The notes: generated from the sequence alone by a model not told the origin. A stretch of 64,000 nt of DNA from Pseudomonadales bacterium (GCA_041395785.1 JAWKZZ010000003.1:526978-590977), one strand, 5' to 3'; positions 9,543 through 52,620 are shown, counted from the first letter of the stretch. A program made the numbers and translations.

Positions 9543-10630
<1,088 letters not shown>

Positions 10631-10631
<1 letters not shown>

Positions 10632-11218
10632 TGGCCACAAAAATTAACCTGCTTCCTTGGCGCGCTGAGCTGCGGGAGCAAAGAAAGAAAGAGTTTCTTG
10701 CTGTGTTGGGAGCAAGCGCGGTTGTCGGGCTGCTTGTTTTCGCAGTTTGGTATATGACGGTCGCCAGCTTGATAGATTTTCAAAAGGAGCGTAACGCAAA
10801 AATTCAAGCCGAAATATCGTTACTTGATAAAAAAGTCACTGAGATTGACGAGTTAAAAAAACAGCGTAACGACATGATTGATAGGATGAAAGTTATCCAG
10901 AGCTTGCAGGGAAATCGACCATTAATCGTGCATATATTTGATGAGTTGGTTGGTAAGTTGCCAGATGGCGTTTTCTTTAAGCGTGCAGAGCGCAAAGGAG
11001 ACAAAATTCTTATCAGTGGCACAGCGGAGTCAAACAACAGGGTGTCGACTTTGATGCGTGACTTGAATAATTCAAAATGGTTAAAGAGCTCTGTGTTGAC
11101 TAAGGTGCAAGCCAACCCATCATTTGGTGATCAGGGAACGGACTTCGATATCAGTGTTGATGTTGTGTTGCCGGAAAGTGATCAAAAAGCTAACGCAAAA
11201 AAAGAGGGTGAAAAATAA
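10631..11218 (+). CDS. pilN: Type IV pilus assembly protein PilN
   Basis: MATKINLLPWR motif, a single TM segment, and a 1-nt overlap with the pilM stop. Confidence 0.9.
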
Positions 11219-11956: not shown

Positions 11957-12519
11957 AAATGAGTGGCGCAAAAAAAGTGGGAGTAAAATTCTGTGCGGCG
12001 CTGTGTCTTCCGCTGCTTTTTGCAGGATGCGGCGACAGCGGAATGTCTGACCTTGAAAACTATATGCAAGAGGTGCGGTTGAGACCTGTGCCGCCTATTG
12101 AGCCAATTCCTACATTCCCTCAGTTTGACACTTTTGTGTATAAGGCGGCTGGAAAGCGTAGCCCATTTGAAAAGCCACAAGCACTAGTTGAAATAGAGAT
12201 TGAAGGTGGCAAAGTAACTGGTGGTGCGCTTATTAAGCCAGATGAGCTTCGCCCTAAAGAATATCTTGAGCAATACAATATCAGCTCAATAACTATGGTC
12301 GGCACAGTTACCAAAGATGGCGTGATATGGGGTTTGGTGGACGATGGAACATCTAACATTCATCGTGTGCAAGTGGGTAACTACATGGGGCGTAACCACG
12401 GGAAAATATTCCATATTGATAATGGACGCATTGATATAAAAGAGATTGTGCCTAGTGGCGATAACTTGTGGGTAGAGCGTCCTAAGACACTGCAATTGCG
12501 CGAATCCGCAGAACAATAA
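11953..12519 (+). CDS. pilP: Type IV pilus assembly lipoprotein PilP
   Basis: Lipobox LLFAGCG, ATGA overlap with pilO, and position upstream of pilQ. Confidence 0.85.
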   Translation: MKMSGAKKVGVKFCAALCLPLLFAGCGDSGMSDLENYMQEVRLRPVPPIEPIPTFPQFDTFVYKAAGKRSPFEKPQALVEIEIEGGKVTGGALIKPDELRPKEYLEQYNISSITMVGTVTKDGVIWGLVDDGTSNIHRVQVGNYMGRNHGKIFHIDNGRIDIKEIVPSGDNLWVERPKTLQLRESAEQ

Positions 12520-12591
12520 TTGATCCGGGTAAATAAAATGACACATCAGTTAAATACAACTGGAAAGGAAAGGGGTGGACTTGTGAAAAAT

Positions 12592-26212: not shown

Positions 26213-26228
26213 GATCAGCGCCTTTTTT
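26205..26228 (+). terminator. Rho-independent terminator overlapping the HD-GYP gene stop
   Basis: Stem GGCGCTGA (26205-26212) pairs with TCAGCGCC (26215-26222), followed by T6. It lies between convergent genes. Confidence 0.7.
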
Positions 26229-35347: not shown

Positions 35348-36292
35348 ATGTGGCGCACTCAAATGGATCAGAGAATGCAGCAGTCAGAACCAAAGGCAAA
35401 ACAGCCCGCTAGCTACGATATCAGTCACACCGTTTGTATCGATAATCCGGTCGATGTTTGCGATGCTGTGCGCGCGGCGTTTGTTTCACATTTTTCTGTA
35501 GCTGAATTTTCCGTTATCGAAACAGCCTTTGTTGATGTGGCTCGTATGTACCGAGGCGATGCGCCGGACTATCACGCCTGCGACACCGATTATCACGATC
35601 TGCGCCATATTCTGGATGTAACCTTGGCGGTAACGCGCTTGCTAATTGGGTATGAGCGCGTGCACGCCGATACGCCTGATGTCTTGGGTGTTGAGCGCGT
35701 GCAGATGGGAATTATTGCGGCGCTGTATCACGACATCGGCTATTTGCGACATGTTAAAGATACGCGTCATAAGCATGGTGCGGAGTACACCAAAACACAT
35801 GTCACCCGAGGCGTGCATTTTTTAGCGCGTTATTTGCCCAGTATAGGAAAGGCTGGTTGGGTGCCTCGCATGCGGCAGTTGCTGCACTACACGGGTTATG
35901 AAAAAACCGTCCGCATGAAAGATGTTCGCGACCATATGCTCGGTTGTTTGTTGGGAACAGGTGATTTAATTGCACAGATGTCTGATCGCGCTTATTTAGA
36001 GCGTTGCCGCGACAGCCTCTACAACGAGTTTCGCATCGGCAATGTGCCAGCGCCAAAAAGCACTGATGGCCAGCCGTTTGAGTCACCGGCAGATTTGCTG
36101 AATCAAACACCAGAATTCATGCGGATAACGGTAGACAGCCGTTTGAACAAATTGTTCGGCTCGGTCTATCGCTACGCGGAACAATTTTTTGATGGCAAGA
36201 ATTTGTACATGCTGGGCCTGGAAAAGAACTGCACTTATCTACAAAAACTATTAGAAGAAAAACGCTTGTACCGATTGCAGCGCCGCGTTTAG
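35348..36292 (+). CDS. HD-domain-containing hypothetical protein
   Basis: HDLRHILDV...ALYHDIGYL (H...HD pattern). There is no other recognisable domain. The start is uncertain (35348 or Met at 35363). Confidence 0.6.
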   Translation: MWRTQMDQRMQQSEPKAKQPASYDISHTVCIDNPVDVCDAVRAAFVSHFSVAEFSVIETAFVDVARMYRGDAPDYHACDTDYHDLRHILDVTLAVTRLLIGYERVHADTPDVLGVERVQMGIIAALYHDIGYLRHVKDTRHKHGAEYTKTHVTRGVHFLARYLPSIGKAGWVPRMRQLLHYTGYEKTVRMKDVRDHMLGCLLGTGDLIAQMSDRAYLERCRDSLYNEFRIGNVPAPKSTDGQPFESPADLLNQTPEFMRITVDSRLNKLFGSVYRYAEQFFDGKNLYMLGLEKNCTYLQKLLEEKRLYRLQRRV

Positions 36293-37159: not shown

Positions 37160-40072
37160 TTAGATCGCCAGCTCATCGAGCTGACTTATCCAAGACAGCA
37201 CATTATTTTGCGCATATTGCTGCAGGAAGTTGCTGTTCAAAATAAAGGCTAATTCGCCATTGCTGCGTACCGTGGCGCCACTAATGGAAGGTGCGTTGCG
37301 CAAATCGCGATGCAACTCGCGTACAAAAACATTCTCCCTTCCTAAAACATTGCTTACACAAATACCTATTTTATTTTTCTTTTGACCGATGATGAGGATG
37401 GAGGCAGCTGTCTGTTCATCAATGGGTTGAAAGCGCAGCGCGTGATTATCTGAGCTGATACGCAGGCCGCGTTCCATGACGAGGTCATCAAGATAAAAAA
37501 GAGGAATGACCGTGTCGCGCAAGAGTAGAGCTGATTGCCCCATCATGCTTTGGATAATGCAATCGGTGGAGGACAGAATTTCCATCACTCGCGCCTGTGC
37601 AACGGCGTAGGTGTTGTCGTGATTTTGTATGACGACAACATCTTGTAATGCGGCGGAGAGTGGTAGCGTCATGGTGAAGTGCGTGCCAGCCCCCTGTGTT
37701 GTCTGCACATCAATGTTGCCGCCGATATGCTGGATGCGCGTAATCACGACATCCATGCCGACACCGCGCCCTGATGTCTCGGTAATAGTTTCCGCAGTAG
37801 AAAAACCGGGCAGAAAAATTAATTGACAGATTTCTTGATCGGTTAAAGTGTCATGGGGTTGGATAAATCCTTTGCGAATACCGCTCTCGCGAATTCTTGC
37901 CAAGTTCATGCCGCGACCGTCATCGGCAATTTCTAGTAGCAGTGTGCTGCCCTCTTGTGAGGCGGACAGTACGAGCGAGGCGGTGTCGTTTTTCCCAGAG
38001 GCGTAGCGTTCGCCGGGCAGTTCAATGCCGTGGTCGATGCAGTTCCGCACCAGGTGAATGAGCGGCTCCATCAAAATATCCACCATGCCTTTATCGACGC
38101 GAACATCGGCGCCTTCAATGGACAAATTGATTTTCTTCTCTTGTGCTTCAGCCATTTTTTGCACGAGTTGAGGTATGCGATTAAAAACAGCAGCAATGGG
38201 CACAACGCGTAAATCTAAGATTCTGTTCTGCATGGCATCAAGAGAAGCGCGCAATTTTTCATGGCTCTCGACTATCCTATTTTGTGCCTGTTGTAGTGTA
38301 TTGAGTGTGGTGCGTATGACATCTGCGTCGCTGGCTGTAAGTGTTTCATTCTTGTAATTGGCTAGCCACTTTTTTCCTGTGGTGATAGAGTTTTCGATGG
38401 ATGGATTATTTATCTCATGAGATAAAGCGTTATGTGCCATCAGCAACTCGCCAGTTTGTGTCATCAGATTCTCGAGTGTTTCGCTCTCAATGCGCAGCGT
38501 GGCACTGGATGATGGCGTTTGTTTGATATCGGTATCGGCGCTGAGTTTTTTCTCTAGTGCTTGATCTGCTTTGCTACTTTTTTGTAGGCGAATGTCTCTG
38601 ATGGATGAAAAATTCTTTGCGTGAGCAACTTCACTGATAGTAGAGGATAGTGTTGCTATGTCTATTTCTGATGTAAAAATGAAGACAAATTGATTGTTTT
38701 CCTCAATGTTTTCTTCATTGTTATTAAATACAGAGTAGCTGTGGATAATGCTGCTTGTTGTTGCAATGACGGCAAGAATGGCTTCCAGTATTTCAGTGGT
38801 ACAGCTAGCGGCTATACTGATTTCTGCAATGATTTTCCCAGTGTTGAGTGCGCTATCTAGCTCTGTGATGGCCTTACTAGATAGGTTTCTAATAATTACT
38901 GGCGTGAGCGTGAGGCTTTCGGCAAGATTTTGTTTAGTGCTGGCGCTGATATTACCCAACATGGCCTGAGCAATACTGTCATCTAACTCGGCGATTCTAT
39001 TTTTTAATGTTTGAGCGGCGGCTGAGGATTCGCCAGCCTGCATTTCCGTGGTGAAGGAGATGTCGGCAGCGCGTCTTATGGCATAAAAGGCCGTGCGTTT
39101 GTCGGGAATTTCATTGCGTTTGATGTGGCGCAGGATTTGTAAGATGTAGCGAAACAGGGTTGCTAGCTGCAAGTGTCCAAACAATTCTGCATTGATGGTG
39201 AGATGTTTCAGCAGCGATTCACCGGCCTCCAGCGAGTCTGCTGCTTCAGGGTTTTCTTCGATCAGGTCCAGCAGATAGTCCAATCGGCCAGACAACTGCG
39301 TGAAGTTGACAAACATGGCATCAAAGTAGGCAGTGTGCAGAATTGCTGTGCCGCAATTAACGCCGTAGTGATTTTCAAAGAGTGCAATACGATTCAAAAT
39401 TTCAGCGGCAAGATTGGCTGCCAGCCCCTGATCCAGTGGATTGGTTGCTTTGATGTATTTGCGCAGCAGCGATGCAATAGCCGTAAAGCCAAGTAGATTG
39501 CTAATGCTTACCAATTTGTTGAGCGAGCGTTTGATTTTTGCCGGGTCTTGATTGGGTGTGAGGCCGGCAACCAATTCTTCGGAACAGGCAGTGGCAAATT
39601 CATGCAGTTCGTCATTGCTCAGCTGTACTTCTGTGAAAAATCCAGCTTGTGATGACTCTGCGTCATTATTCTGCTCCTCGGGTTCTGCAATGGTAGAGAA
39701 GCCTTGCGAGAGTTGATGTAAACGCGCGACTAAATTTGGATTTTCTAATGGCGCGTTGCCGGTATTTCGCATTTGTTGCAGTTGCGATTTTAACCAGTCG
39801 ATGCCTTCCAATAAGGTGTTAATCGTTGCGATGTCTAATGCTGTTCGCCCTTTGCGCACTAGGTCTAGATAGTCTTCGCTGGCATGGGCGATCTTTTCCA
39901 TGCTGTAAAAGTCCATCATCGCGCAGCTGCTTTTTATGGTGTGAAAATCGCGAAACAGTTGATGGATGTCTGCATGCTCTGCCGCGTTATTGGCGGCGAG
40001 TATCTGCTCAAGGTTATCGAGTTGCTCCGATACCTCGGTAAAAAAGGCTTGCCAGAGGTCGTTATTTTTCAT
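37160..40072 (-). CDS. CheA-type histidine kinase, long form (N-terminal Hpt plus extra Hpt-like modules, HATPase, CheW domain)
   Basis: 970 aa. Hpt reads FRDFHTIKSSCAMMDF. All kinase boxes are canonical: HLVRNCIDHGIE (N), DDGRGM (G1), FLPGFST (F), SGRGVGMDVV (G2), GAGTHFTMTLPL. The C-terminus is a CheW-like domain. Confidence 0.88.
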   Translation of the reverse strand: MKNNDLWQAFFTEVSEQLDNLEQILAANNAAEHADIHQLFRDFHTIKSSCAMMDFYSMEKIAHASEDYLDLVRKGRTALDIATINTLLEGIDWLKSQLQQMRNTGNAPLENPNLVARLHQLSQGFSTIAEPEEQNNDAESSQAGFFTEVQLSNDELHEFATACSEELVAGLTPNQDPAKIKRSLNKLVSISNLLGFTAIASLLRKYIKATNPLDQGLAANLAAEILNRIALFENHYGVNCGTAILHTAYFDAMFVNFTQLSGRLDYLLDLIEENPEAADSLEAGESLLKHLTINAELFGHLQLATLFRYILQILRHIKRNEIPDKRTAFYAIRRAADISFTTEMQAGESSAAAQTLKNRIAELDDSIAQAMLGNISASTKQNLAESLTLTPVIIRNLSSKAITELDSALNTGKIIAEISIAASCTTEILEAILAVIATTSSIIHSYSVFNNNEENIEENNQFVFIFTSEIDIATLSSTISEVAHAKNFSSIRDIRLQKSSKADQALEKKLSADTDIKQTPSSSATLRIESETLENLMTQTGELLMAHNALSHEINNPSIENSITTGKKWLANYKNETLTASDADVIRTTLNTLQQAQNRIVESHEKLRASLDAMQNRILDLRVVPIAAVFNRIPQLVQKMAEAQEKKINLSIEGADVRVDKGMVDILMEPLIHLVRNCIDHGIELPGERYASGKNDTASLVLSASQEGSTLLLEIADDGRGMNLARIRESGIRKGFIQPHDTLTDQEICQLIFLPGFSTAETITETSGRGVGMDVVITRIQHIGGNIDVQTTQGAGTHFTMTLPLSAALQDVVVIQNHDNTYAVAQARVMEILSSTDCIIQSMMGQSALLLRDTVIPLFYLDDLVMERGLRISSDNHALRFQPIDEQTAASILIIGQKKNKIGICVSNVLGRENVFVRELHRDLRNAPSISGATVRSNGELAFILNSNFLQQYAQNNVLSWISQLDELAI

Positions 40073-40099
40073 GGCGAATATTTACTTGGCATGGTGGTA

Positions 40100-41152
40100 T
40101 CAGTCCTTGCTGTTCTGCAAACACTGTTTGATGAGATCAGGCATCGCGGTGTACGGCACTTGCCACTCCACGGCGCCAATGTCCATTGCCACGCGCGGCA
40201 TGCCGTAAACCGCACAAGTGGCTTGGTCTTGTCCGATAGTAGGCGCGCCCGCTTTGCGCATTTCCAGTAGCCCTGCAGCGCCGTCTTCGCCCATGCCGGT
40301 CAGAATAATACCGATGGCTTTGGCGCCAAGCTGCGCGGCCACTGAGCGAAACAATACATCGACAGAGGGGCGGTGACGATTGACCGGCGGATCCTCCGTG
40401 ATGCGAACATGAAGCGCGTTATTTTGTTTGATGAGCTGCATGTGCATGCCGCCGGGCGCAATGAGCGCCGTACCTTTTGCAATACGGTCACCGTCAACGG
40501 CCTCGCGCACCTCGATGTCGCAAATGCCATTGAGGCGCTTGGCAAAAAGTGCGGTGAAGTGCTTGGGCATGTGTTGCGCGATAAGAACACACGGCGATTC
40601 TTTGTTCATCTGTCGCAATAAATGCTCTACCACCGTGGTGCCGCCTGTGGAACTGCCGATAGCAATGACAGCGGGTGTGCGGCGAATTAACGGAGCTGCG
40701 GCGATAGGCTGTGGCGTGGCGATTTTTCTGTGTGCATCGGGTGCTTGGCGCGTGGTTGCACATGCAGCCGCTTTTATCGCTTGCGTAATGGTGTTGGTAA
40801 TTTCTTCTAAATAGGACTCAACGCCGATATTCGGTTTGGAAATAATATCAACAGCACCCAAAGCCAACGCGTCTAGCGATGCTTTTGCGCCAGGTCCGAC
40901 ATGCGAAGAGCAGACAACAAAAGGTGTGGGATGGTGTTCGCGAATATATTTTAGAAATTCCAAACCGTGCATGCCTGGCATTTCCAAATCGGAAATGATG
41001 ACATCCGGCCACTGTTTGCTCATTTTTTTGAGGGCGATATCCGCCGTAGCGGCAACGCCAATGACGCAGATATCTGGGTCTTTTTCTAGCAGGAGTTTCA
41101 GCACTGCACGCACAGTGGCTGAGTCATCAACTAGAAATACATTAATGGGCAT
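40100..41152 (-). CDS. cheB: Protein-glutamate methylesterase CheB (REC + methylesterase)
   Basis: The REC domain reads VFLVDDS...ISDLEMPGM...SKP. The catalytic Ser/His/Asp contexts are GSSTGG, AQHMP and GMGEDG. Confidence 0.92.
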   Translation of the reverse strand: MPINVFLVDDSATVRAVLKLLLEKDPDICVIGVAATADIALKKMSKQWPDVIISDLEMPGMHGLEFLKYIREHHPTPFVVCSSHVGPGAKASLDALALGAVDIISKPNIGVESYLEEITNTITQAIKAAACATTRQAPDAHRKIATPQPIAAAPLIRRTPAVIAIGSSTGGTTVVEHLLRQMNKESPCVLIAQHMPKHFTALFAKRLNGICDIEVREAVDGDRIAKGTALIAPGGMHMQLIKQNNALHVRITEDPPVNRHRPSVDVLFRSVAAQLGAKAIGIILTGMGEDGAAGLLEMRKAGAPTIGQDQATCAVYGMPRVAMDIGAVEWQVPYTAMPDLIKQCLQNSKD

Positions 41153-41651
41153 GGAGAGGAGCGCCGTTGTTGTTGGTTAAAAATTGGTTTGCTGTTTTGA
41201 TAGTGTTAGGCAGCCATTGCAGTGGATCTTTTAGGCACATCATCAAACAGTCGTGTTGGTCTTTTGCGTACAGGCGATCAAAAAAAACATCAATATCCTT
41301 GTTGATGCCACTGGTTTGATACCACTCGTGAGCTTGTGGCTCTACAAAACCGACTACATCATCGACAGCAATGATAGCAATTGGTTGAAATGTGGCATTG
41401 CTGCGCAATACAAGTGCGCTAAGTGGTGGCAGTAGTTTTTCGTGCGGTAGTTGTAGTGTTAGTCGAAAATCGAGATACGGTAATACGGTGTCATTCCAAG
41501 TGGTGGTTTTGCCGTGATGTGCCAGTGAATCACCTGAGGGAGAGCAGAGTGCGCTGTCAAAGTCCAAAATTTTTGCCATATTGCCGATAGGCAGCAGCAG
41601 TGCAAAAGGGCCACAGTGAAATTGCAGAAATTGTTTATCACTATGCAGCAT
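41142..41651 (-). CDS. Divergent CheW-like coupling protein
   Basis: ORF 41142..41666, with the Met at 41651 overlapping the upstream cheA stop. FLQFHCGPFALLLPIGNMAKIL...IIAVDDVVGF resembles a single CheW domain and sits between cheA and cheB. Confidence 0.6.
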   Translation of the reverse strand: MLHSDKQFLQFHCGPFALLLPIGNMAKILDFDSALCSPSGDSLAHHGKTTTWNDTVLPYLDFRLTLQLPHEKLLPPLSALVLRSNATFQPIAIIAVDDVVGFVEPQAHEWYQTSGINKDIDVFFDRLYAKDQHDCLMMCLKDPLQWLPNTIKTANQFLTNNNGAPLHAH

Positions 41652-43419
41652 ACAAAGGCTCTCCATAGTGTTGGGTTAGGCGAAACAGGCCTTCGCAGTC
41701 CAAAATGAGGATGGCATTGCCATTGCCTAATAGGGATACGCCGCTGATTCCAGGAATATTGAGGATATCTTGGTGAATATTGCGCAAAAAAAGATCTTGT
41801 TTTCCTTCAATGCTATCAACATGCAGGGCGATACACTGCGTTTCATTCTGCAGTATCACGAGCAGAATTTTTTTGTTGTTTGTGGATGGCGGCGTTCGCA
41901 GTTGCAGCAATGTGCTAAGCGAATACACAGGCAGTAAATTTCCACGCAAGTCTAGCTGCGAAAAACCTTGGCTGGTGTCGAGTTGCTCAGGTGTGACTTC
42001 GTTGATTTCAACAACTTGCCGAAGTGGGATTGCGAAACATTGACCGCTGGCCTGTATCGCCAGAGTGTTTTGGATGGCGACTGTCATGGGCATGCGCATG
42101 GTAAAGCGTGTGCCGGTGCCGAGTGTGCTTTTAATGGAGATAGAGCCGCCGATGCGCAATAAGTTTTCTCGCACTACATCCAGGCCAGTGGTGCGGTTGG
42201 GTGTATCAGTGCTGAAACCGTGTGAAAAAAGGAAGCTGAGCCAGAATTCTTCAGAAGTGTATTGTGTTGAGTGATTGTCTTCGGTTGTGTCAGATGCTAA
42301 TCCTTTGCTGATAGCTTTGTCGCGTATGCTGCGGTAGTCAATGCCGCGACCGTCGTCTTGAATGTCTAGCTGAATCATGTCGCCATTTTTTTGAGCGGAA
42401 ATATGAATTTTCCCTGTTTCAGATTTGTTGCTGGCTTTGCGTTCATCGGCAGATTCGAGTCCGTGTACAACAGCATTATGCAGCAGGTGAATGATGGGCT
42501 CTGCAATGATATCAATCATGCTCTTGTCGATAGCGATATCGCCGCCATCCGAGAAAAGTTGCACCGTTTTTTGATGAGTAGAGGCTTTTTGTCGAACAAT
42601 ACGCGGTAGGCGAGTAAAAATGGTGGAGAGGGGTATTGCCCGCAGCGACAGCATGCGAGCTTGCAGATTGTCGCTGATGGTTTTGATCTCGGCGTCTATT
42701 TGCAGTAGTGATTTTTGATAATCGGCAAAGGTGCTAAGAAGCGTTGCAAAATGTGCAACAACGGTATGTTTTTCGGCCGCCACTTCATTTTTTAAAGATT
42801 GTTGAGTGGCATAGATGGCGTTGTCTGTCTTGGTTTTTATGGTTGTGCCGTCAATACTGTGTTCGGCCAAAATGAGTTGTGTGATTTGTGTTACCAGCTC
42901 ATCTAGACTGCTGCTGTTGATACGAAGCGTGTCTATTTCTAGCGCTTCCTTCTGTTCGCTGATATTGGATTTTTCGGCGAGTTCAATTTTCTCCGCTGGC
43001 GCTGGATCGGCGAGTAAAAGTTCCTCTTGTTGGCGAAATGGAGCCAGTTTTCTGTGTAGAGCCTCATTGGTGGTGTGAGGGTATTGTCCCGGTGCTGCTT
43101 CTGCCATTTGTTTTTTAATCCAATCCACAGACTCTAGTAGTGCATCGAGAATCTGTTGATTGGGCGCGGTTTTTGATTTTCGCAAGCCGTGCAAAATATC
43201 TTCACAGGCATTGGCAATTTCCATGGGTTCTTTGAAGTCCACCATGGATAAATTGCTTTTTAAGGTGTGGAACTCGCGGAATAGTGCATCAACGGCGTGG
43301 CTGTCATCTGTGTTGCTATCTGGCGAGGCGGCTTTGGTCACCATCGCCTCTAATGTGTCCAGTTTTTCACCCACTTCGGCGGTGAAAACAGGCCACAGTT
43401 GTTCCAGCATGCTGCTCAT
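41641..43419 (-). CDS. CheA-type histidine kinase, short form, with non-canonical G2 box
   Basis: 592 aa. Hpt reads FREFHTLKSNLSMVDF, the N box HLLHNAVVHGLE, G1 DDGRGID and F FSHGFST. The G2 position reads NRTTGLDVV instead of GxGxGxD. The C-terminus is a CheW-like domain. Confidence 0.85.
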   Translation of the reverse strand: MSSMLEQLWPVFTAEVGEKLDTLEAMVTKAASPDSNTDDSHAVDALFREFHTLKSNLSMVDFKEPMEIANACEDILHGLRKSKTAPNQQILDALLESVDWIKKQMAEAAPGQYPHTTNEALHRKLAPFRQQEELLLADPAPAEKIELAEKSNISEQKEALEIDTLRINSSSLDELVTQITQLILAEHSIDGTTIKTKTDNAIYATQQSLKNEVAAEKHTVVAHFATLLSTFADYQKSLLQIDAEIKTISDNLQARMLSLRAIPLSTIFTRLPRIVRQKASTHQKTVQLFSDGGDIAIDKSMIDIIAEPIIHLLHNAVVHGLESADERKASNKSETGKIHISAQKNGDMIQLDIQDDGRGIDYRSIRDKAISKGLASDTTEDNHSTQYTSEEFWLSFLFSHGFSTDTPNRTTGLDVVRENLLRIGGSISIKSTLGTGTRFTMRMPMTVAIQNTLAIQASGQCFAIPLRQVVEINEVTPEQLDTSQGFSQLDLRGNLLPVYSLSTLLQLRTPPSTNNKKILLVILQNETQCIALHVDSIEGKQDLFLRNIHQDILNIPGISGVSLLGNGNAILILDCEGLFRLTQHYGEPLYAA

Positions 43420-43441
43420 GATGGTGTGTCTTGTTCAGTGA

Positions 43442-43867
43442 TTAGAGGCATTTGTGTATTGCATCAAGAAGTTCGCGGCTTTTCTTTTCTTCGAAATCTA
43501 AACTAAGCACGCCAGATGGCTTGGGAATGATGTCTGCAGCGCCCAGTGCCAATGCTTCACGCGCTTCGTTGGAGTCTAGTCTTGCTACAGAGGAAATAAT
43601 AATGACCTTTGCGCTGGTGACTAAACGAGATCGGCGCAAAAACTCAATGCCATCCATATTGGGCATTTCGATGTCGAGTAAAACAATGTCGGGGGATAAT
43701 TCAGACACTTTTTCCAGCGCAATCAAGCCGTCCTCAGCTTCGCCCACGATGCTGAGGGCAGGATCATTTTCTACGATGTTGCGAATGATCCGCCGCATCA
43801 AAAAAGAATCATCCACAATCAACACTTTTAAGGTGTTGGCGGAGGCTGCGGTGGCGGTGTCGTTCAT
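43442..43867 (-). CDS. CheY-like single-domain response regulator
   Basis: ORF 43442..43891, internal Met chosen as start. It reads KVLIVDDS...VLLDIEMPNMDG...IISS...PKP, with all receiver signature residues present. Confidence 0.88.
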   Translation of the reverse strand: MNDTATAASANTLKVLIVDDSFLMRRIIRNIVENDPALSIVGEAEDGLIALEKVSELSPDIVLLDIEMPNMDGIEFLRRSRLVTSAKVIIISSVARLDSNEAREALALGAADIIPKPSGVLSLDFEEKKSRELLDAIHKCL

Positions 43868-43900
43868 GGTGTGTTCTCCGAGTATGCTCAATGCGCGTAG

Positions 43901-45286
43901 TTAAGCTTGTGCTGCCCACTGCTGGTTGAATAGATTGGGGTTGAGCAGAGGAATCAGTTCTTCCTCAACGCGAGCAATGCCGCTCAGTGGTCTGGCATCG
44001 GGTGTTGATTCGCTGTGAATGCTAGAGAGTGGTATTTGCACAATGTGTTGTGCCGCTTCTACGCAGATGGCCCACTCTTGCGCAGCATCACCGACGATAA
44101 TGTATTCATTGTGTGTGTGTTGTTCTATTTTTAGAATCTTTTCAATGGCAAGAACAGGGATAATTTTCCCTTCTATATTGATGGCGCCGCAAATGTTATC
44201 TGTTTTGTCATTGATGGGGTTCATGGGGAAAAATGGAACAATGCGCTTTACATTATGCAGTGGGATGACAAAGGATTTTTCCCCGAGGATGATTTTTAAA
44301 AAGCTGCTCGTTGCTTCTTTTTCAATTAAAGAGCCATTGATGTTTTTTTCTACATAGGGCGTGAGAAAGTTCGCCATATTCTCGTCAATAATTTGTCGTG
44401 GGCTTAATGACAAGGTTGTTGTTTCTTCATGGATAAACATGCCAGAAATTTGTTGACCGCTATCGATTACTGGCTGAAAGCTTTCAAATGGGAATTTTTT
44501 TACGCCCAACAGTTGATTGACCAGCAAGCCATAGAGAGCGCCTTCGCGTTCGACCACAATCAACCAAGATTGTTCGCCAGTGCGGGTTTCTGTCGTGAGT
44601 AAGTCGGCAAGTGCGATGACGGGAATCGTTTGGTCGCGCAGCAGGCAAAAGCCGAGTAGGCCGTTCGGGGCATCGGGGATGGCGGTATAGCTGCCTGCTT
44701 CTACAATTTCAATGACGCTTTGCAGTTCAAAGGCGTATTGATCTTTGCCAATGCCGACGATGAGGCAGGCGATTGTCATGTGTTCTTCAGTGCGGTGATT
44801 GTCGGCAACTTTCCCCAAGATACCTGTAGCCCCCTCGCGCAGTGGGCTGGTTTGGATGAGTTCGCCGATACGCTGCGGGTTGAGAATGTAAACGCGGTTG
44901 TCTGCGTGGGGCGCTATACCGGCCAGCAGGTTCTTGTCGATGGGGGCGTCCGCTTCAACGGGTAATGGTTGGAGGGTTAAGTGTGTGCGCTCAACGATGC
45001 GCTCTGCCTGCAATGCACACAGCGCTCGCCCTGTATCAATCAATATCAGCTCGGTGCGCCCAAGGTGTGTGGTGTCGCTCAGTGTGGCAAGATTGACTTG
45101 GATGGCAATGGCGCCGTCAACATTGACCAAGCCATCGATGCTCGCGGGAACAAAGGGGATGGGCGTGACGGGCAGTGTGGGAATTATTTTGCGCACACAG
45201 ACAGCAGGCAGTGCAAAACAGTGTTTGCCACTGGTAATGACTAGGTGCTGTGTTGCTGTGATTTCATTGTTTTTCATAGATAACAC
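43901..45286 (-). CDS. Multi-CheW-domain scaffold protein (three CheW-like repeats)
   Basis: 461 aa. Three repeats of the pattern (hydrophobic)-F-(A/E)-(L/F)...V..I.....(T/I)P.P each run ~140 aa, beginning HCFALPAVCVRKI, QYAFELQSVIEIV and KSFVIPLHNVKRI. The start is uncertain (GTG 45286 or ATG 45277). Confidence 0.75.
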   Translation of the reverse strand: MLSMKNNEITATQHLVITSGKHCFALPAVCVRKIIPTLPVTPIPFVPASIDGLVNVDGAIAIQVNLATLSDTTHLGRTELILIDTGRALCALQAERIVERTHLTLQPLPVEADAPIDKNLLAGIAPHADNRVYILNPQRIGELIQTSPLREGATGILGKVADNHRTEEHMTIACLIVGIGKDQYAFELQSVIEIVEAGSYTAIPDAPNGLLGFCLLRDQTIPVIALADLLTTETRTGEQSWLIVVEREGALYGLLVNQLLGVKKFPFESFQPVIDSGQQISGMFIHEETTTLSLSPRQIIDENMANFLTPYVEKNINGSLIEKEATSSFLKIILGEKSFVIPLHNVKRIVPFFPMNPINDKTDNICGAINIEGKIIPVLAIEKILKIEQHTHNEYIIVGDAAQEWAICVEAAQHIVQIPLSSIHSESTPDARPLSGIARVEEELIPLLNPNLFNQQWAAQA

Positions 45287-46181
45287 ATTTGTTTTGGCGG
45301 TTTTCGTGATAGAGGTTCGGGACAGCCATCGTGTCTACCAAACTCAACATCAAGCAGCCGCCGTGTTGCAGGGCTTGATGCAGTGCACGAACAATAATTT
45401 TTTGTGGTTCATGATCCATATAGATCAGTGCATTGCGACAAAAAATAACATCGAACTCGCGCTGCGGCGGCAGTGGGTTCATCAAATTATGAAGATCAAA
45501 GTGCACATGGCGCCGCACGCTGTCTTTGATTTGCCAAGTTTTTCTGTCGCTGTCATCACTGCTGATTAAATCAAAAAAACGCAGATAAGCGGGAGGAAAT
45601 TGGCGGAAGGACGAAAGCCCTTCCTGGCGCTGCGTGTAGGTGGCTTCACGCGCGATGCGGATGGCTTGTCGCGAAATATCAGTACCTAAAACCTCCAGTT
45701 TCCAGTCGGCGGGCAAAGTGATATTGCCTCGCGTTGCTTCGTGCGCAATACCCAAGCGCACTAGGGTGTTAAGGGTGAGCATGGTCAGCGTATACGCTTC
45801 TTCACCCGTGGCGCAGGCGGCAGACCAGAGCGATATTTTTTTGATACCACCCTGCTGTTTCTTTTTCTGCACCAACGCTGGAATCACCACATCTTCCAAG
45901 GCGTTCAAATGTGCGCGTTCGCGAAAAAAATAGGTTTCGTGATTGGTTAAATCTTCCACTAAAGCAGCCAGTTGGTTGTTGTTGGCATCGCTTTCAATAC
46001 TGTGCAAAAAAGAAGACAGGTCAGCCGAGTTTTGAAAAATGCGTTCGAGTTTGCGTTGAATTTGTGGGGAAGCACGAAAGCCAGCGAATTGCTTTAGCTG
46101 CTGCATGAGCTGTTCGACCATGCGTGTTGCGACAGATGACTTGGTGTCTGTGTGTGAATAGCTGCTGTGGCTAGTGGCCAT
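45264..46181 (-). CDS. cheR: Chemotaxis protein methyltransferase CheR
   Basis: ORF 45264..46283, with the Met at 46181 preceded by an AGGGGA SD. It reads ETYFFRE, LWSAACATGEEAYTL, VLGTDIS and IFCRNALIYMD. Confidence 0.9.
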   Translation of the reverse strand: MATSHSSYSHTDTKSSVATRMVEQLMQQLKQFAGFRASPQIQRKLERIFQNSADLSSFLHSIESDANNNQLAALVEDLTNHETYFFRERAHLNALEDVVIPALVQKKKQQGGIKKISLWSAACATGEEAYTLTMLTLNTLVRLGIAHEATRGNITLPADWKLEVLGTDISRQAIRIAREATYTQRQEGLSSFRQFPPAYLRFFDLISSDDSDRKTWQIKDSVRRHVHFDLHNLMNPLPPQREFDVIFCRNALIYMDHEPQKIIVRALHQALQHGGCLMLSLVDTMAVPNLYHENRQNKCVIYEKQ

Positions 46182-46215
46182 GCCAATCCCCTGTGAGGTT
46201 TGCAGCAGGGAAAGG

Positions 46216-46662
46216 CTATTGTAGGCAGACCACCAAGGAGGCGGGATACCCATTCCAGAAAAATGGCACAACGCCGATGTCATAGTTGCGCGGGAAGTAG
46301 ATGTGCTCTGGTCTGCCGCTCACAACCACGGGAACCGAAATCATAAAGCCGGAACCCAGGATTTTTCTGGCGTTGCCAGACACAGTGTTGGTGATTTCGC
46401 CGATGACATCGTGGAATAGACTTTCGTCGATTTCGGGTTCGCCCATTGCCAGCAGCACTTGTCCCAACATCTCCTTGGTGGCGGTCAGGTAGATAGAGCC
46501 CTGCTTGTCACCACTGACGCCGATGATGCCGGTGTATTCGCTGGCAGGTGTGCCTGTGGTCTCGGTATGGTAAGACGGCTGGATCTCCAAGTTGCCGCCA
46601 ATATTGGCGGCAAAATAGTGGCGCAGGCTGTCGATAAAAATTTGCAGTTCAGCTTCTTTCAT
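46216..46662 (-). CDS. cheX: CheX-like CheY-P phosphatase (CheC/CheX/FliY family)
   Basis: ORF 46216..46692, with the ATG at 46662 preceded by an AGGAGA SD. YTGIIGVSGDKQGSIYL...DVIGEITNTVSGNARKIL matches the CheX pattern I know. Confidence 0.75.
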   Translation of the reverse strand: MKEAELQIFIDSLRHYFAANIGGNLEIQPSYHTETTGTPASEYTGIIGVSGDKQGSIYLTATKEMLGQVLLAMGEPEIDESLFHDVIGEITNTVSGNARKILGSGFMISVPVVVSGRPEHIYFPRNYDIGVVPFFWNGYPASLVVCLQ

Positions 46663-46688
46663 GGGCCTGGCTCTCCTATCAGACGATG

Positions 46689-47057
46689 TCAACCCTGGGC
46701 TTCCTCGATCAACTCTTCCAATGCCGCGTTGATTTGCTCATCGTCGAAGGGTTTGGTCAAAAAACCTTTGGCACCGTTTTTCATGGCTTGGATGGTGGTG
46801 GCTTTGTCTGACAAGGATGAGATCACCAAGATCAGCACATCGGGCTTGATGGCGACCAAATGTTGCACACATTCCACGCCGTCCATTTCGGGCATGGTGA
46901 GATCCATGGTCACCAGTTCGGGCATCTCGCGTTTGAACACTTCAACGGCCTCTACGCCGTTGCTAGCGGTGAAGAAATCGGTGACTTGATCTAGGGTGAT
47001 CGACCGCTGGATCTTGCGCTGCATGACCGTGGAATCGTCAACAATCAGCATTTTCAT
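46689..47057 (-). CDS. CheY-like single-domain response regulator (first gene of the operon)
   Basis: MKMLIVDDS...VTMDLTMPEMDG...VISS...TKP. It is a canonical receiver of 122 aa. Confidence 0.9.
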   Translation of the reverse strand: MKMLIVDDSTVMQRKIQRSITLDQVTDFFTASNGVEAVEVFKREMPELVTMDLTMPEMDGVECVQHLVAIKPDVLILVISSLSDKATTIQAMKNGAKGFLTKPFDDEQINAALEELIEEAQG

Positions 47058-47206
47058 GGAGCATCCTCAAGTGGTGTGTGAATGGGGTCATGGTTTTACA
47101 AAAGCGCAGGTCTTGTCAATGATTTTACGATCCGAGACGGCGAGTGTGGTTTGCGGTGGGTTCAGGCGTTATCCTTGCGCCCATAAGAAAGTAAAGAGGC
47201 TTCAGC

Positions 47207-48844
47207 ATGGTGAAAGTGGCTATTAGTGACTTGATCGAAAATCAGCTCCAGCAGGAAAAGCAGCTGGAGAAGTTTTTTCGTACAGCCACGCCGCAATCCC
47301 TGAAGGCGCACTTGGCCGACATGCCGGCAGGTGTGTCTGAGCAAATTGCGTATCTAAACGCTGTTTTGAAGGTATTGAGCGAGCTCGATGTGGCTCCTGT
47401 GCAGGTATTTTCTCTGCTGGAGACAGTGCGCCCCGTGGTGTACGAAAAGTTCAATATGCTGACTTCGCGTTTTTTGGGGCGATCAGCCGTGTTTCCAGCG
47501 CGCATCCAAGAGCTACTCGGGCAGGCTGTTGCACTGCTGAGCCACATGACTTCCTCTTACGACAATGTGGTGGAGGAGACGCGCGCGCAGGGCGATAAGC
47601 AGGTATTTATTCTCGGTGCCGCTATTCAGCGTGCTATGGCGGATAAGGCTTTTCTGTTGTACTGCTATTTGCAATTGTATTTGCCGGTGCCGCAGCAAAT
47701 TTGGCGGCAGTTCAACAAGTTGTATTTAATCGCTGCAGAAAATAAATTGCTGATCCAAACCACGCCGGATCCGCTGGTATTTCCGCGCAAGCCGCTCAAC
47801 CTGCGGCAAATTTATCTCTACGCTGTCATGTTGGATTGTTCGGACAGCCGGCATTTGAATTGTGGCGATATTCGCACATTGTCTGAAGCCCTAAAAGATT
47901 GGGTGTCGTACATCAGCATCGTCGACAGTAAATCGGATAAAGAAGAAAACCCGTTGGTGGTCAATTTAGAAGCGCCATCCGGCGCTGTGTTTTATGCCGA
48001 TCTTGGCAATAAATACAGTAGTAAATTGGTTTTTTTGCAGCTGGATAAATTTATTGCCCACCTAAGAGGGTTAAAAAAATATTCATTGCGTGTCAGTATC
48101 AGTGAAGAGTGGCTGTTTGATAAGCCCATGATTGAGCAATTGCTAGATCAGTGGATTGTGCACAAGCCAAAATCCACTGATCGTGTTGAATTGAATGAAG
48201 TGGTGGTGGCGGTGTTGGGTGTGCTGCCTGTGCATTATTATTTGGCAGGGTTTCGCACGCCAGAAGTATTGACGGGCAATGCGGTGTTTGCCGAAAAAGA
48301 CCCTGCCGGTAAGTTGTTGTACGGTGAGTTGCCCACGGCATTTCGCACGCTCACTAGCACTCTGCCAGCAATGAAAATTGAAAAGCCGGAATATGCTTAC
48401 GAGAAAGTGATGGCGGTTGACCAAAGCCCGGGTGGTTACTGTTTGGAGTGGGTCAGTGACGCACAGGATGAATTGTCGGTAGGGAAAATCATTAGTATTC
48501 GCCACAAAATGTCGCCGTATTGGAAGGTTGGTGAAATCGTTTCCATCACGCATACGGACGATAAAAAAGTGCGCACCGGCATCAATTTGATCAGCACAGA
48601 AGCGGTGCCCGTGGTTGCGCGTTTGCTCAATAAAATTGATTCGTTGCCGATTTTATTGTGTCCAGCAGAAAAATCGTTGAATCGAAAAAGCGCAACCGCT
48701 GTCGTGCCGAAGTCGGTTTGCCAGATGGGTGAAAAACTGCAAATCGCACAAATGGGACACACGCGCACGATTCAGTTGATGCAGCCGATCAAACGAAATG
48801 ACAGTTGTATTCTGTTCGAGTGCGCCTATCTCGCTACGGAATAA
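47207..48844 (+). CDS. Hypothetical 545-aa protein with PilZ-like C-terminal beta-barrel
   Basis: No recognisable N-terminal domain. The C-terminus reads VMAVDQSPGGYCLEW...VGKIISIRHK...WKVGEIVSITHTDDKKVRTGINLIS, which fits the PilZ D-x-S-x-x-G core and barrel pattern, but no upstream RxxxR was found. It is divergent from the che operon. Confidence 0.55.
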   Translation: MVKVAISDLIENQLQQEKQLEKFFRTATPQSLKAHLADMPAGVSEQIAYLNAVLKVLSELDVAPVQVFSLLETVRPVVYEKFNMLTSRFLGRSAVFPARIQELLGQAVALLSHMTSSYDNVVEETRAQGDKQVFILGAAIQRAMADKAFLLYCYLQLYLPVPQQIWRQFNKLYLIAAENKLLIQTTPDPLVFPRKPLNLRQIYLYAVMLDCSDSRHLNCGDIRTLSEALKDWVSYISIVDSKSDKEENPLVVNLEAPSGAVFYADLGNKYSSKLVFLQLDKFIAHLRGLKKYSLRVSISEEWLFDKPMIEQLLDQWIVHKPKSTDRVELNEVVVAVLGVLPVHYYLAGFRTPEVLTGNAVFAEKDPAGKLLYGELPTAFRTLTSTLPAMKIEKPEYAYEKVMAVDQSPGGYCLEWVSDAQDELSVGKIISIRHKMSPYWKVGEIVSITHTDDKKVRTGINLISTEAVPVVARLLNKIDSLPILLCPAEKSLNRKSATAVVPKSVCQMGEKLQIAQMGHTRTIQLMQPIKRNDSCILFECAYLATE

Positions 48845-50676: not shown

Positions 50677-52620
50677 ATGAGCAGTCTTGCTGCATGCACT
50701 ACAGCCTCGGTTTTTCACCGAATGTCAGCTGTTGTTTTGTTGATTATTGGCGGACTATTTTCTGCACACGTTTTTGCGGTTCCATCTAATGTTTATGGGG
50801 CAATTTACGGTGGTGGAACATGTAAGCCGATCTTCTCCCCCAATAAGATGTATGTGCGCAGAAATGGATTGGAGTGTGATGTTACAGGCTCCACCACGCT
50901 ACAGTGTCGCGCCTATCACGGTGTTGGGCTTAGTAGTGGTGCCTCTATGCCTGGTTCTTTTCCTGCCTGCGGCGCACAGGATAGTTACTCAAGTTCTGTG
51001 ACAGTGAATGCGGCTGCAGATATCAGTGGCATCACATTATCGATGACTCAATTATGTGCAAATACTGCTTTGGGTAACCAGTGCTGGGATGTCGTTTTAA
51101 GCGTTGCTGAGTCTGTTGTATCGAATAAATATAGCTACGCATTTAATTTTGCGCTGACAGATCAAGACGCAGATGCTGATGGCGTACTCAATGCAACGGA
51201 CAACTGCCTATTCGTTTCAAATGCAGATCAGTTGAATACTGATGGAGATAGTGCGGGCGATGCATGCGACGCAACACCGAACGGTGACACGGACAACGAC
51301 GGCATCGATAACTTAAGTGACAACTGCGCGGCTGTTTCCAACAGCAATCAACTGGATTGGGATGGCAATGGCATCGGTGATGCCTGCGACGAACCTGTGC
51401 CAGTGCCTGAAGATGTGAAGGGCGAATTGAAAGCCGACAAAGCCGGTTCTTCTGTGGCATTTGCTGGTGATTTCAACGGCGATGGTTATGGCGACTATGT
51501 GGTCGGTTCACCGGGTGCCAACAAGGGTTCAGGTAAAGCCGTTGTGATGTCCGGCAAAGACGGCAGCATTCTCGCTTCGGTTGAAGGCACCGCCGCAAAA
51601 TATGCGATGGGTTTTGCCGTGGCAGGTAACGCCGATATTGATGGTGACGGTTTTGCCGATGTGATTGTCAGCGCGCCACAGGCTGCCATTCCCGGTCGCA
51701 AAGCCGTGGGTGAGGTGGTGGTGATCTACGGCTGCGCTGCAAACTGCACTGTCACCAACACGTTGCACGGCACAGAGTCCAAGGCGCTGTTTGGCGCAGC
51801 ACTGGCGTTGGCGGATGTAGTCGGTGACGGCCATGCCGATGTGATTGTCGGTGTACCAAAAGCCACGTACAACCGTGACGGTGTTGCGCTGAAACAGGCG
51901 GGCAGTGTGATCGTGTATGACGGCAGCACTATGGAAGTTGGCAAACGGTTTTACGGTGCCGCCGCCAATGCCCATGCAGGCACCGCCGTTGCAACGGGTG
52001 ATGCCGATGGCGACGGTCTGGCAGACATTATCATCGGTGCACCGGATGAAGACGGTGTGGGCAGTGTTCGTGGTTACAGTCGTAATGGAGCCGAATTGCT
52101 GCACAAGACCGGAACAGGCAAAAAATCACAATTTGGCAAAGCCGTGGCGAGTGCCGACATCAATCACGATGGCCATGCCGATATTGTCGTTGGCGCACCT
52201 CTGGATGATGATGCTGTCACTCGTACAAAAGACACAGGCAGCATCCGTGTGTTTAGTGGCAGCGATGGCGAATTATTACCAGTACAATTATTTGGCGCAG
52301 TGAAAAAAGCGTGGCTTGGCAGCAGTGTGGTGCTGGCGGATGTCAATGGTGACGGCACAATGGACATCATCGCTGGTGCGCCACAAAACGATAGCAGCAC
52401 CATCAAAAAAACCGGCAGCGTCACGGTATGGAGTGGTGCGACTTACGTGCCAATTATCACGGTGTACGGTTCGGCTTTCGGTAATTTATTTGGCGCGGCA
52501 TTGAGCGCAGGCGACATCAACAGCGATGGCAAGGCGGATGTGATTATCGGTGTGCCGGGTTTTGATTTGCCAAAAAAAGACGCAGGGAAAGTGACAGTGG
52601 TAAATGGATCCGCATTGTAG
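50677..52620 (+). CDS. Secreted FG-GAP (integrin-alpha-like) repeat protein with thrombospondin type-3-like Ca-binding repeats
   Basis: Signal-like N-terminus (AVVLLIIGGLFSAHVFA). TSP3-like repeats read DADADGVLNATDNC...DQLNTDGDSAGDACD...DTDNDGIDNLSDNC...DWDGNGIGDACD. At least 6 FG-GAP units follow (FG.A....D.NGDG.ADVI.GAP). Confidence 0.8.
   Translation: MSSLAACTTASVFHRMSAVVLLIIGGLFSAHVFAVPSNVYGAIYGGGTCKPIFSPNKMYVRRNGLECDVTGSTTLQCRAYHGVGLSSGASMPGSFPACGAQDSYSSSVTVNAAADISGITLSMTQLCANTALGNQCWDVVLSVAESVVSNKYSYAFNFALTDQDADADGVLNATDNCLFVSNADQLNTDGDSAGDACDATPNGDTDNDGIDNLSDNCAAVSNSNQLDWDGNGIGDACDEPVPVPEDVKGELKADKAGSSVAFAGDFNGDGYGDYVVGSPGANKGSGKAVVMSGKDGSILASVEGTAAKYAMGFAVAGNADIDGDGFADVIVSAPQAAIPGRKAVGEVVVIYGCAANCTVTNTLHGTESKALFGAALALADVVGDGHADVIVGVPKATYNRDGVALKQAGSVIVYDGSTMEVGKRFYGAAANAHAGTAVATGDADGDGLADIIIGAPDEDGVGSVRGYSRNGAELLHKTGTGKKSQFGKAVASADINHDGHADIVVGAPLDDDAVTRTKDTGSIRVFSGSDGELLPVQLFGAVKKAWLGSSVVLADVNGDGTMDIIAGAPQNDSSTIKKTGSVTVWSGATYVPIITVYGSAFGNLFGAALSAGDINSDGKADVIIGVPGFDLPKKDAGKVTVVNGSAL

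Follow-up and report, generated by a model that had tools for sequence, protein, structure and literature searches.

The 64,000-nucleotide stretch of Pseudomonadales bacterium DNA analysed here, called the window in the following, carries on its minus strand (37160-47057) a cluster of nine chemosensory (che) genes transcribed in the order CheY-122, CheX, CheR, CheW3, CheY-149, CheA-592, CheW-174, CheB and CheA-970 and, divergent from them, a gene for a PilZ-type protein of the FimW family, a putative receptor of cyclic di-GMP (c-di-GMP). With somewhat less than even confidence, the locus as a whole is read as a functional chemosensory operon of a small uncharacterised lineage that is coupled to the FimW-like protein, pairs a kinase with a pseudokinase and employs a receptor of the 34-heptad (34H) class. 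So far, this lineage has been found by its sequences only in uncultured Pseudomonadales/Cellvibrionales-like Gammaproteobacteria; its traits are CheW3, a long canonical CheA, a CheY similar to CheB receivers, a CheY-CheX pair, CheR and CheB, receptors of 34H length and the link to a FimW-family PilZ protein. An initial annotation had proposed an uncharacterised system with a gene order unlike the flagellar, Pil-Chp and Wsp clusters, and indeed no clean mapping was obtained, the canonical layout of the F9 class included. The analysis is sequence-based, drawing on domain content, motifs, gene linkage and selection, from which all functional steps are inferred.

In the proposed mechanism, one or more transmembrane methyl-accepting chemotaxis proteins (MCPs) of the 34H class encoded elsewhere would build an array together with CheW3, CheW-174 and both CheA homologues, the latter through their P5 domains. 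CheA-970 would be the sole ATP-hydrolysing kinase, phosphorylating its own P1 domain and possibly, in trans, the P1 histidine of CheA-592, and the two P1 domains would feed different receivers among CheY-149, CheY-122 and CheB. Phosphorylated CheY would be reset by CheX, and the receptor would be adapted by CheR and CheB. The most likely route of read-out would be through the FimW-like c-di-GMP receptor or in concert with it, favoured because neither an enzymatic nor a DNA-binding output is present and the FimW-like protein is the only conserved partner that is not a Che protein. Integration of phosphorylated CheY and c-di-GMP could then direct polar or surface behaviour, for example type IV pilus activity, and not main flagellar navigation.

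Such an arrangement suggests that chemosensing can be directly coupled to c-di-GMP and surface behaviour, and the FimW-like partner, sometimes encoded inside the operon, is a candidate for the physical junction of the two kinds of signalling. Accessory systems of the F8 and F9 classes are widespread with outputs largely unknown, and a FimW-type partner would constitute a concrete, testable candidate for a read-out. A more far-reaching proposal, which we consider possible but rather doubtful, is that the FimW-family receptor is an integral subunit, as co-sensor or output, of a CheW3 membrane array with a kinase/pseudokinase pair, a previously unrecognised type of pathway; phosphorelay and c-di-GMP would then be joined in one complex that decides on polar pilus or surface commitment.

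CheA and CheW proteins

CheA-970 possesses what characterises the CheA of a Che pathway, an Hpt domain with its histidine, a HATPase_c core and a P5 domain. Like the kinase boxes of all long CheAs of related clusters and of the F9 CheAs, its N, G1, F and G2 boxes have the canonical form, and the histidine of its own P1 is conserved. The linker of approximately 420 residues between P1 and P3 (106-525) has no Pfam match even at E=10; an additional Hpt or P2 domain in this linker was considered and rejected upon alignment of P1 with three linker segments by hhalign (best E 0.006, probability 6.5%).

In CheA-592, the G2 box reads NRTTGLD instead of GRGVGMD, the lid has a deletion of five residues and the N-box arginine is changed to histidine, a register confirmed by alignment to Escherichia coli CheA (PDB 6S1K; G470 to N, G472 to T, five residues deleted). 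The same kind of change recurs in CheA-592 and eight orthologues from two cluster types, with GRGVGMD altered to xRTTGLD or xxxSGLD, insertions or deletions in the lid and histidine or glutamine in place of the N-box arginine; the P1 motif FHTLKS (His51 in CheA-592) is invariant and P5 intact in all nine short CheAs. The G2 glycines of CheA are required for the function of the ATP lid and for autophosphorylation. Because the degenerate G2 box and ATP lid are conserved, CheA-592 is probably a pseudokinase and phosphotransfer scaffold, so that the two kinases of the initial annotation probably come down to one kinase and one such scaffold. As judged by a ratio of nonsynonymous to synonymous substitution rates (dN/dS) of 0.11, the protein is maintained.

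In a rough neighbour-joining tree rooted on two F9 CheAs, the short CheAs branch as a single clade within the CheAs that CheW3 clusters encode, a position compatible with an old CheA duplication inside the lineage, and the best explanation would be that CheA-592, as a second CheA homologue, was added together with its own small CheW in the branch of the window. Comparison with plasmid-borne CheAs by tblastn did not discriminate classes, both cluster CheAs being approximately 30% identical to all of them. In the lineage of the P0007 contig and locus L015, the short CheA (542 residues; L015 2709-4337) lacks a HATPase_c match in Pfam; in the L015 alignment part of the G1-box region is missing and tyrosine replaces the N-box asparagine, with P1 and P5 kept, which represents a further stage of degeneration of the kinase core.

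CheW3 has few close relatives (14 homologue clusters in a word-index search) and a dN/dS of 0.10. CheW-174, which scores below the Pfam cut-off of 23.5 bits, has positional orthologues that reach 28-33 bits (33 bits in L012), and is the fastest-evolving gene of the cluster with 39-53% identity in L001 and L002 and a dN/dS of 0.18. Six CheW-like domains are thus encoded, three in CheW3, one in CheW-174 and two as P5 domains, where the initial annotation had counted four. The triple CheW is not without precedent: the literature treats it as a mark of the F9 class, of which the concatenated triple CheW and DosM are signature components and to which the triple CheW has been called unique, and some F9 clusters also possess a CheY-CheX pair (PMC9321776; PMC7534058). 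The canonical F9 order is DosM-W3-B-.-R-Y-A, trailed by the CheY-CheX pair in several Alphaproteobacteria (PMC9321776, S6 table), and F9 gene sets also occur in partial or hybrid form (PMC9321776). In Vibrio cholerae, the F9 system (cluster I) forms cytoplasmic double-layered arrays and is an accessory system with unknown output (PMC7534058; PMC9321776).

Two real F9 clusters on plasmids of Methylobacterium currus (L009) and Azospirillum brasilense (L010) show the order DosM-CheW3-CheB-HEAT-CheR-CheY-CheA, which differs from the order Y-X-R-W3-Y-A-W-B-A of the window, and their CheW3 proteins are 22-27% identical to that of the window. A gene for DosM or a HEAT-repeat protein was found neither in the window nor in any related locus by the same test that detects DosM in both plasmid clusters. 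Because these genes are missing, the order is different and sister clusters possess transmembrane receptors of 34H length, the window cluster is, on this comparison, not F9; its lineage looks F8-like or unclassified. Equally, these data indicate that CheW3 is not confined to F9, and its presence beyond the cytoplasmic DosM arrays bears on the question of how array geometry is constructed.

The FimW-like protein and its association with che clusters

Sequence motifs, predicted fold and a precomputed FimW_N assignment are the reason to label the divergently encoded protein a FimW-family PilZ-type protein and thereby a putative c-di-GMP receptor. In the window scan the protein had no Pfam or NCBIfam match, the scanned Pfam set being one without the FimW_N model; PF27104 (FimW_N) is precomputed for each of the 19 homologues recovered as well as for the che-linked relatives, and one homologue is annotated as 'cyclic-di-GMP-binding protein'. 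The PilZ motifs K322-x3-R326 and D405-x-S407-x-x-G410 are separated by an insertion of approximately 75 residues, with R326, D405, S407 and G410 invariant and lysine or arginine at position 322 in 14 of the 15 aligned sequences. In an AlphaFold2 model (pLDDT 75), the N-terminal half is helical and the C-terminal half rich in beta structure, and the top meaningful Foldseek matches, YcgR, PlzD (VCA0042), MrkH and PP4397, have probabilities of 0.57-0.97 with weak E-values. A profile of the FimW-like family had no meaningful match among the sequences of solved structures, tblastn of the protein against plasmids gave no match, and a second word-index search with the alignment recovered no new proteins.

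Among 1.84 billion representatives, a search by profile yielded 2190 relatives (E <=0.001), of which approximately 10 score above 380 bits; the remainder has 550-630 residues and scores of around 200 bits or less. One relative, in L028, combines FimW_N with FimW_C and lies beside genes for a GGDEF-EAL protein and a rhodanese, psd and motB, which we take to be the fimW-fimX neighbourhood of Pseudomonas aeruginosa. The window protein aligns with L028 FimW over the full length at 22% identity; the C-terminal DDFDxIWxxL tail is absent. FimW_C (PF27125) is not on record for the che-linked subfamily, although its C-terminal half still aligns with canonical members.

Within the subfamily, the association with che genes occurs in three arrangements. 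In loci of the window type, the FimW-like gene is divergent from cheY. In L011-L014 it is convergent with the long cheA and surrounded by ssb, nhaA and a steroid dehydrogenase gene, the cluster order being ...W3-Y-Ashort-W-MCP(dCache)-B-Along. In L024 and L027 the gene is embedded between cheA and mcp in operons with a single CheA (Y-X-Y-Along-FimWlike-MCP-R-W3-B(-W)). The suggestion that the divergent PilZ-like gene is a candidate partner of the cluster is thereby strengthened, and since the linkage survives a changed neighbourhood, orientation and operon position, the FimW-like protein is likely a component of the che system; as comparative evidence, linkage of this kind is a good argument that the two are functionally connected.

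The FimW-like genes of L025 (13112-13993) and L026 (689-1570), which are not che-linked, are both located near a LuxR-type Autoind_bind gene, that of L026 also near receiver-domain genes, a neighbourhood which may reflect an alternative signalling partnership of FimW-like proteins.

Operon layout, conservation and genomic surroundings

All ten open reading frames (ORFs) of the initial annotation, the nine packed minus-strand che genes and the divergent gene, were recovered and, with respect to identity, assigned by Pfam and NCBIfam (Table 1). Spacings between the longest ORFs, counted from the end of CheA-970, are 27, -11, -26, 22, 9, -23, -68 and -4 nucleotides, and with the start codons of the syntenic locus L029 applied each gap in the cluster is at most 34 nucleotides; from this spacing co-transcription of the nine che genes is inferred.

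Table 1. Features of the chemosensory cluster and the divergent gene; coordinates are those of the window.
Feature	Coordinates	Strand	Assignment
CheA-970	37160-40072	minus	Pfam Hpt (5-101), HATPase_c (670-806), CheW (812-948)
CheB methylesterase (receiver and catalytic domain)	40100-41152	minus	Pfam CheB_methylest 205 bits, Response_reg 82 bits
CheW-174, divergent single-domain CheW	41142-41666	minus	Pfam CheW 21 bits
CheA-592	41641-43419	minus	Pfam Hpt, HATPase_c, CheW; P1-P3-P4-P5
CheY-149	43442-43891	minus	Pfam Response_reg 86 bits; stand-alone receiver
CheW3, 461 residues	43901-45286	minus	Pfam CheW 185 bits in 3 stretches; three concatenated CheW domains
CheR methyltransferase	45264-46283	minus	Pfam CheR 141 bits; S-adenosylmethionine-binding motifs present
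CheX phosphatase	46216-46692	minus	Pfam CheX 66.5 bits
CheY-122	46689-47057	minus	Pfam Response_reg 91 bits; 122 residues; first gene of the operon, single-domain response regulator
Divergent intergenic region, 149 bp	47058-47206		between cheY-122 and the FimW-like gene
FimW-family PilZ-type protein, 545 residues, putative c-di-GMP receptor	47207-48844	plus	precomputed Pfam PF27104 (FimW_N) in homologues

The residues that define the smaller Che proteins are in place. CheY-122, 97-98% identical in L001, L002 and L029, shows the acidic pocket DD (7-8), the phosphorylation site D52, S80/81 and K102. In CheX the active-site motif D95-x3-E99-x2-N102 is intact, and its true start is probably at 46662, giving 148 residues as in the gene calls of L029 and L016. 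The stand-alone receiver CheY-149 has D27/D28, D72 and K123 and is closest to CheB receivers, with the N-terminus of CheB as top NCBIfam match (123 bits); a start at 43867, giving 141 residues, is probable. CheB exceeds the NCBIfam cut-off with 383 bits and retains D54 and the Ser-His-Asp triad S167, H193 and D289. According to Pfam and NCBIfam, the only receivers in the cluster are single-domain CheYs and CheB, with no REC-GGDEF or other enzymatic response regulator, and the cluster genes have no match to CheZ, CheD, CheV, GGDEF or a REC-fused CheA, as had been stated initially for the lack of such proteins and output modules. For CheR, a true start at 46181 (305 residues) is probable, relatives being called with 300-305 residues. 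Synonymous divergence of cheR from L029 (45264-46181 versus L029 5417-6334) is only 0.12, with 0.4-1.4 in the neighbouring genes, which suggests a patch of recent recombination or gene conversion over cheR because its synonymous divergence is far below that of its neighbours.

The nine-gene order recurs, whole or as far as the contigs reach, in approximately ten loci, together with the FimW-like gene divergent from it and with recJ and the OmpA gene at its flanks. Recovered from genome and metagenome scans and contig look-ups, these are L001, L002, L003, L007, L016, L018, L019, L029, the P0007 contig and the window itself, every one from an uncultured Pseudomonadales/Cellvibrionales metagenome-assembled genome (MAG) or metagenome contig. 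Seven mostly short loci from the metagenome scan confirmed the gene order and added no new arrangement. Against L029, dN/dS amounts to 0.01-0.18 across recJ, the FimW-like gene and the eight che genes that the L029 contig covers, CheA-970 not being among them; because of these values the tested genes, CheW3, CheA-592 and CheW-174 included, are considered to be under purifying selection. CheX (0.01), the FimW-like protein (0.019) and CheY-122 (0.03) are the most constrained of the locus.

In the 149-bp intergenic region, which the divergent genes share as initially proposed, an alignment of six orthologous regions reveals an invariant TGTCAAT...TTTT block at 47114-47126, and TTGACA, as read on the minus strand, might be the -35 element of the che operon. 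A scan for consensus promoters found fewer sites than in shuffled sequences and flagged within 47058-47206 only a plus-strand TTTACA/AATGAT; a terminator scan detected no internal minus-strand terminator of note.

The receptor gene is located outside the cluster in loci of the window type. No MCP hairpin-tip motif was found in the six frames of the 64-kb window by a fuzzy search that does find the MCPs of control loci, and Pfam reported no MCPsignal or HAMP domain in the other ORFs of at least 200 residues lying outside larger ORFs, which extends the initial statement of no MCP in or near the cluster to the whole window. Equally, the approximately ten syntenic loci have no MCP in the stretch of cluster that each contig covers, in line with a receptor encoded elsewhere in this lineage. 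The term 'receptor-less' hence applies to the gene layout of this branch and not to the system, as sister clusters carry a transmembrane MCP of 34H length. Related clusters with a receptor gene are L005 (a 4HB-HAMP type), L006, L008, L011-L014, L024 and L027. Each of the six receptors examined (L006, L008, L011, L012, L024, L027) has one hairpin tip, and two transmembrane-like segments are present in all five of them that were checked. In five (L006, L011, L012, L024, L027), 119-121 residues from the tip glutamate to the C-terminus correspond to 17 heptads per arm and thus 34H, an assignment by length count and not by the Alexander-Zhulin hidden Markov models. The same script found two tips and no transmembrane segment in the two real DosM proteins of L009 and L010, and a DosM-type receptor in the related clusters was ruled out by the single tip and two transmembrane segments.

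Beyond CheA-970, the cluster is followed by the OmpA/Gly-zipper gene of the initial annotation, a hypothetical gene, purC, an MBL hydrolase gene and bamC; on the other side, past the divergent gene, recJ was found as claimed, then an FG-GAP/thrombospondin-type-3 (TSP3) repeat gene and ribE. In its longest ORF, recJ begins at 48798 and shares 47 nucleotides with the FimW-like gene, which ends at 48844; in L029, recJ is called with 577 residues from a start 19 nucleotides past the FimW-like stop, and the start in the window is probably near 48852. Apart from a variable insertion, the gene of the 647-residue FG-GAP/TSP3 protein (50677-52620), the block is syntenic. L001 and L002 carry this gene, whereas L003, L007, L018, L029 and the P0007 contig lack it and have recJ directly beside ribE. 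A conserved 314-residue protein (35348-36292), encoded between purC and the OmpA-like gene, is without Pfam match in the window; its relatives have a faint precomputed match to PF28239 (Npun_R2479), and the gene is syntenic in all window-type loci that reach that far.

Further away, an HD-GYP gene on the plus strand (DUF3391 and HD_5) and, on the minus strand, a PAS-GGDEF-EAL gene are arranged tail to tail at 24845-28335, approximately 9 kb from the che cluster, such that genes of c-di-GMP turnover lie near that of a putative c-di-GMP receptor. A type IV pilus assembly cluster (9564-14730) is located beside mrcA (7001-9397), in which Pfam covered and confirmed pilM (9564-10631) and pilQ (12520-14730); on account of this cluster the organism probably makes type IV pili. 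The other scanned ORFs of at least 200 residues belong to housekeeping or other functions (relA/spoT, mrcA, pilM-Q, gltBD, hemE, HD-GYP, PAS-GGDEF-EAL, glyA and others). Flagellar genes occur neither in the window nor in any fetched locus, and Rfam models, those of c-di-GMP riboswitches among them, gave no match in the window.

Alternative explanations and known systems

Several observations weigh against the reading of the locus as a FimW-coupled operon with a kinase/pseudokinase pair. Homologues stem without exception from metagenomes or MAGs, the search of the 64-kb window did not reveal a receptor of this genome, and spacing is the only basis of co-transcription. The pilMNOPQ genes lie 22 kb off in a housekeeping context with no direct link between locus and pili. 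Inactivity of CheA-592 is read from motifs alone, and most orthologues keep G1 and the N-box asparagine; furthermore, CheA-970 has its own P1, and trans-phosphorylation of CheA-592 is therefore not required. The distant CheW3 clusters L005, L006 and L008 have no FimW-like gene nearby and, conversely, subfamily members L025 and L026 have no che genes within 10 kb. Finally, coupling could run in either direction, with c-di-GMP as input to the array or the FimW-like protein as output.

A decaying remnant, in which the receptor was lost and the degenerate CheA-592 and the fast CheWs reflect relaxed selection, could be suspected from the lack of an MCP in cluster and window, the degenerate G2 box of CheA-592 and the fact that CheA-592, CheW-174 and CheW3 are least conserved (39-70% identity versus 82-97% in neighbouring genes). 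However, loci covering the cluster in full have nine intact ORFs and the partial ones no disrupted gene, among lineages with up to 60% protein divergence; dN/dS is 0.10-0.18 even in the fast genes, identical and not random G2 substitutions are kept across clades, and sister clusters with an MCP carry the same degenerate short CheA. Decay was rejected on dN/dS and is hardly credible. That the FimW-like gene is unrelated to the che operon, merely sharing the syntenic block purC-ompA-che-X-recJ-ribE, with the target of CheY elsewhere, is rather unlikely. In the clade of the window the whole neighbourhood is syntenic and adjacency weighs little, L025 and L026 demonstrate the subfamily apart from che genes, and canonical FimW adjoins a fimX-like gene and not che genes; yet the link persists in a new chromosomal neighbourhood and orientation (L011-L014) and as an insertion within the operon (L024, L027), and most examined loci of the high-scoring subfamily, approximately 10 of approximately 2190 relatives, are che-linked.

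More specific alternatives assign the cluster to a known class. A rearranged F9-class system of the V. cholerae cluster I type, with a cytoplasmic double-layered array, DosM encoded elsewhere and the FimW-like gene as a mere neighbour, would be in agreement with the triple CheW described as F9-unique, the CheY-CheX pairs that close several F9 clusters (PMC9321776), the accessory nature and unknown output of F9 (PMC7534058) and the occurrence of partial or hybrid sets. It is quite improbable in view of the missing DosM and HEAT-repeat genes here and in related loci, single-tip receptors with two transmembrane segments instead of the two tips and no such segment of real DosM, a receptor length of 34H and not the F9-linked 44H, the low CheW3 identity, the deviating gene order and the rough tree, which sets the cluster CheAs apart from the two F9 CheAs, themselves the outgroup. 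In P. aeruginosa, MapZ acts on CheR1, and a reverse direction in which c-di-GMP acts on the array via the FimW-like protein, by analogy with MapZ, is a serious rival. In its full form this alternative takes the cluster for an accessory chemotaxis system of F8-like type by which flagellar motility is modulated, with the FimW-like protein as c-di-GMP-dependent input or brake on the array, CheR or CheA; we grant it a minor though appreciable chance. PilZ proteins acting on chemotaxis proteins are known, MapZ among them (listed in PMC12564702), the position of the FimW-like gene between cheA and mcp in L024 and L027 suits an array component, CheD is present in one distant relative, as in F8 clusters, and 34H receptors, as counted by length in the sister clusters, are linked with F8, those of 44H with F9 (PMC9321776; for F8 also PMC11253619). 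Described F8 clusters, however, have a single-domain CheW and no FimW-like gene, no flagellar gene was found in the window or the fetched loci, and a target would still have to be postulated for the single-domain CheYs.

The preferred reading of a FimW-coupled operon places the cluster beside several characterised systems. With F9 and V. cholerae cluster I it shares the triple-CheW scaffold, adaptation by CheR and CheB, two CheY-type receivers, the CheY-CheX pair of some F9 clusters and, presumably, the accessory role; it differs by two CheA homologues, the lack of DosM and HEAT genes, another gene order, the distant CheW3 (22-27% identity) and, in its relatives, transmembrane 34H-length receptors in place of cytoplasmic DosM and 44H receptors. 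The F8 systems (P. syringae cluster II, F8 of Vibrionales, Borrelia CheA1) resemble it as accessory, poorly characterised pathways with CheA, CheW, CheY, CheB and CheR, with CheD in one distant relative, and by the probable 34H-type receptor of its relatives, but possess one CheA and no CheX-CheY pair in addition to the differences named above. Pil-Chp (Tfp) and Wsp (ACF) are Che-like pathways for pili and c-di-GMP and not for flagella, a role similar to the one proposed here; the window cluster, however, is devoid of PilJ, a multi-Hpt REC-fused ChpA and a WspR-type REC-GGDEF protein, in accordance with Pfam, which detects among the cluster genes neither a REC domain on either CheA nor PilJ.

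In P. aeruginosa, type IV pilus assembly is stimulated by FimW, which binds c-di-GMP as an effector and localises to the cell poles (PMC10212136; PMC12564702). P. aeruginosa FimW (PA4958) and the window protein have in common FimW_N, alignability over the full length, the [KR]xxxR and (D/N)xSxxG motifs and a similar length. On the other hand, identity to FimW proteins in the canonical context is only 22-24%, the FimW_C record and the DDFDxIWxxL tail are lacking, and the gene adjoins the che operon and recJ instead of a fimX-like GGDEF-EAL gene. In the cheOp3 operon of Rhodobacter (Cereibacter) sphaeroides, CheA3, with P1, a degenerate core and P5, works together with CheA4, the two being thought to act as one unit (PMC10782961). 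The window cluster equally encodes two CheA homologues, one with P1 and P5 and a degenerate kinase core, but its active kinase CheA-970 keeps P1, which the Rhodobacter partner kinase lacks, no TlpT or PpfA genes are present, nothing suggests cytoplasmic arrays, and a common origin of the two pairs is not evident. The conserved degenerate CheA would thus represent a second, probably independent, case of a kinase with a phosphotransfer scaffold after Rhodobacter.

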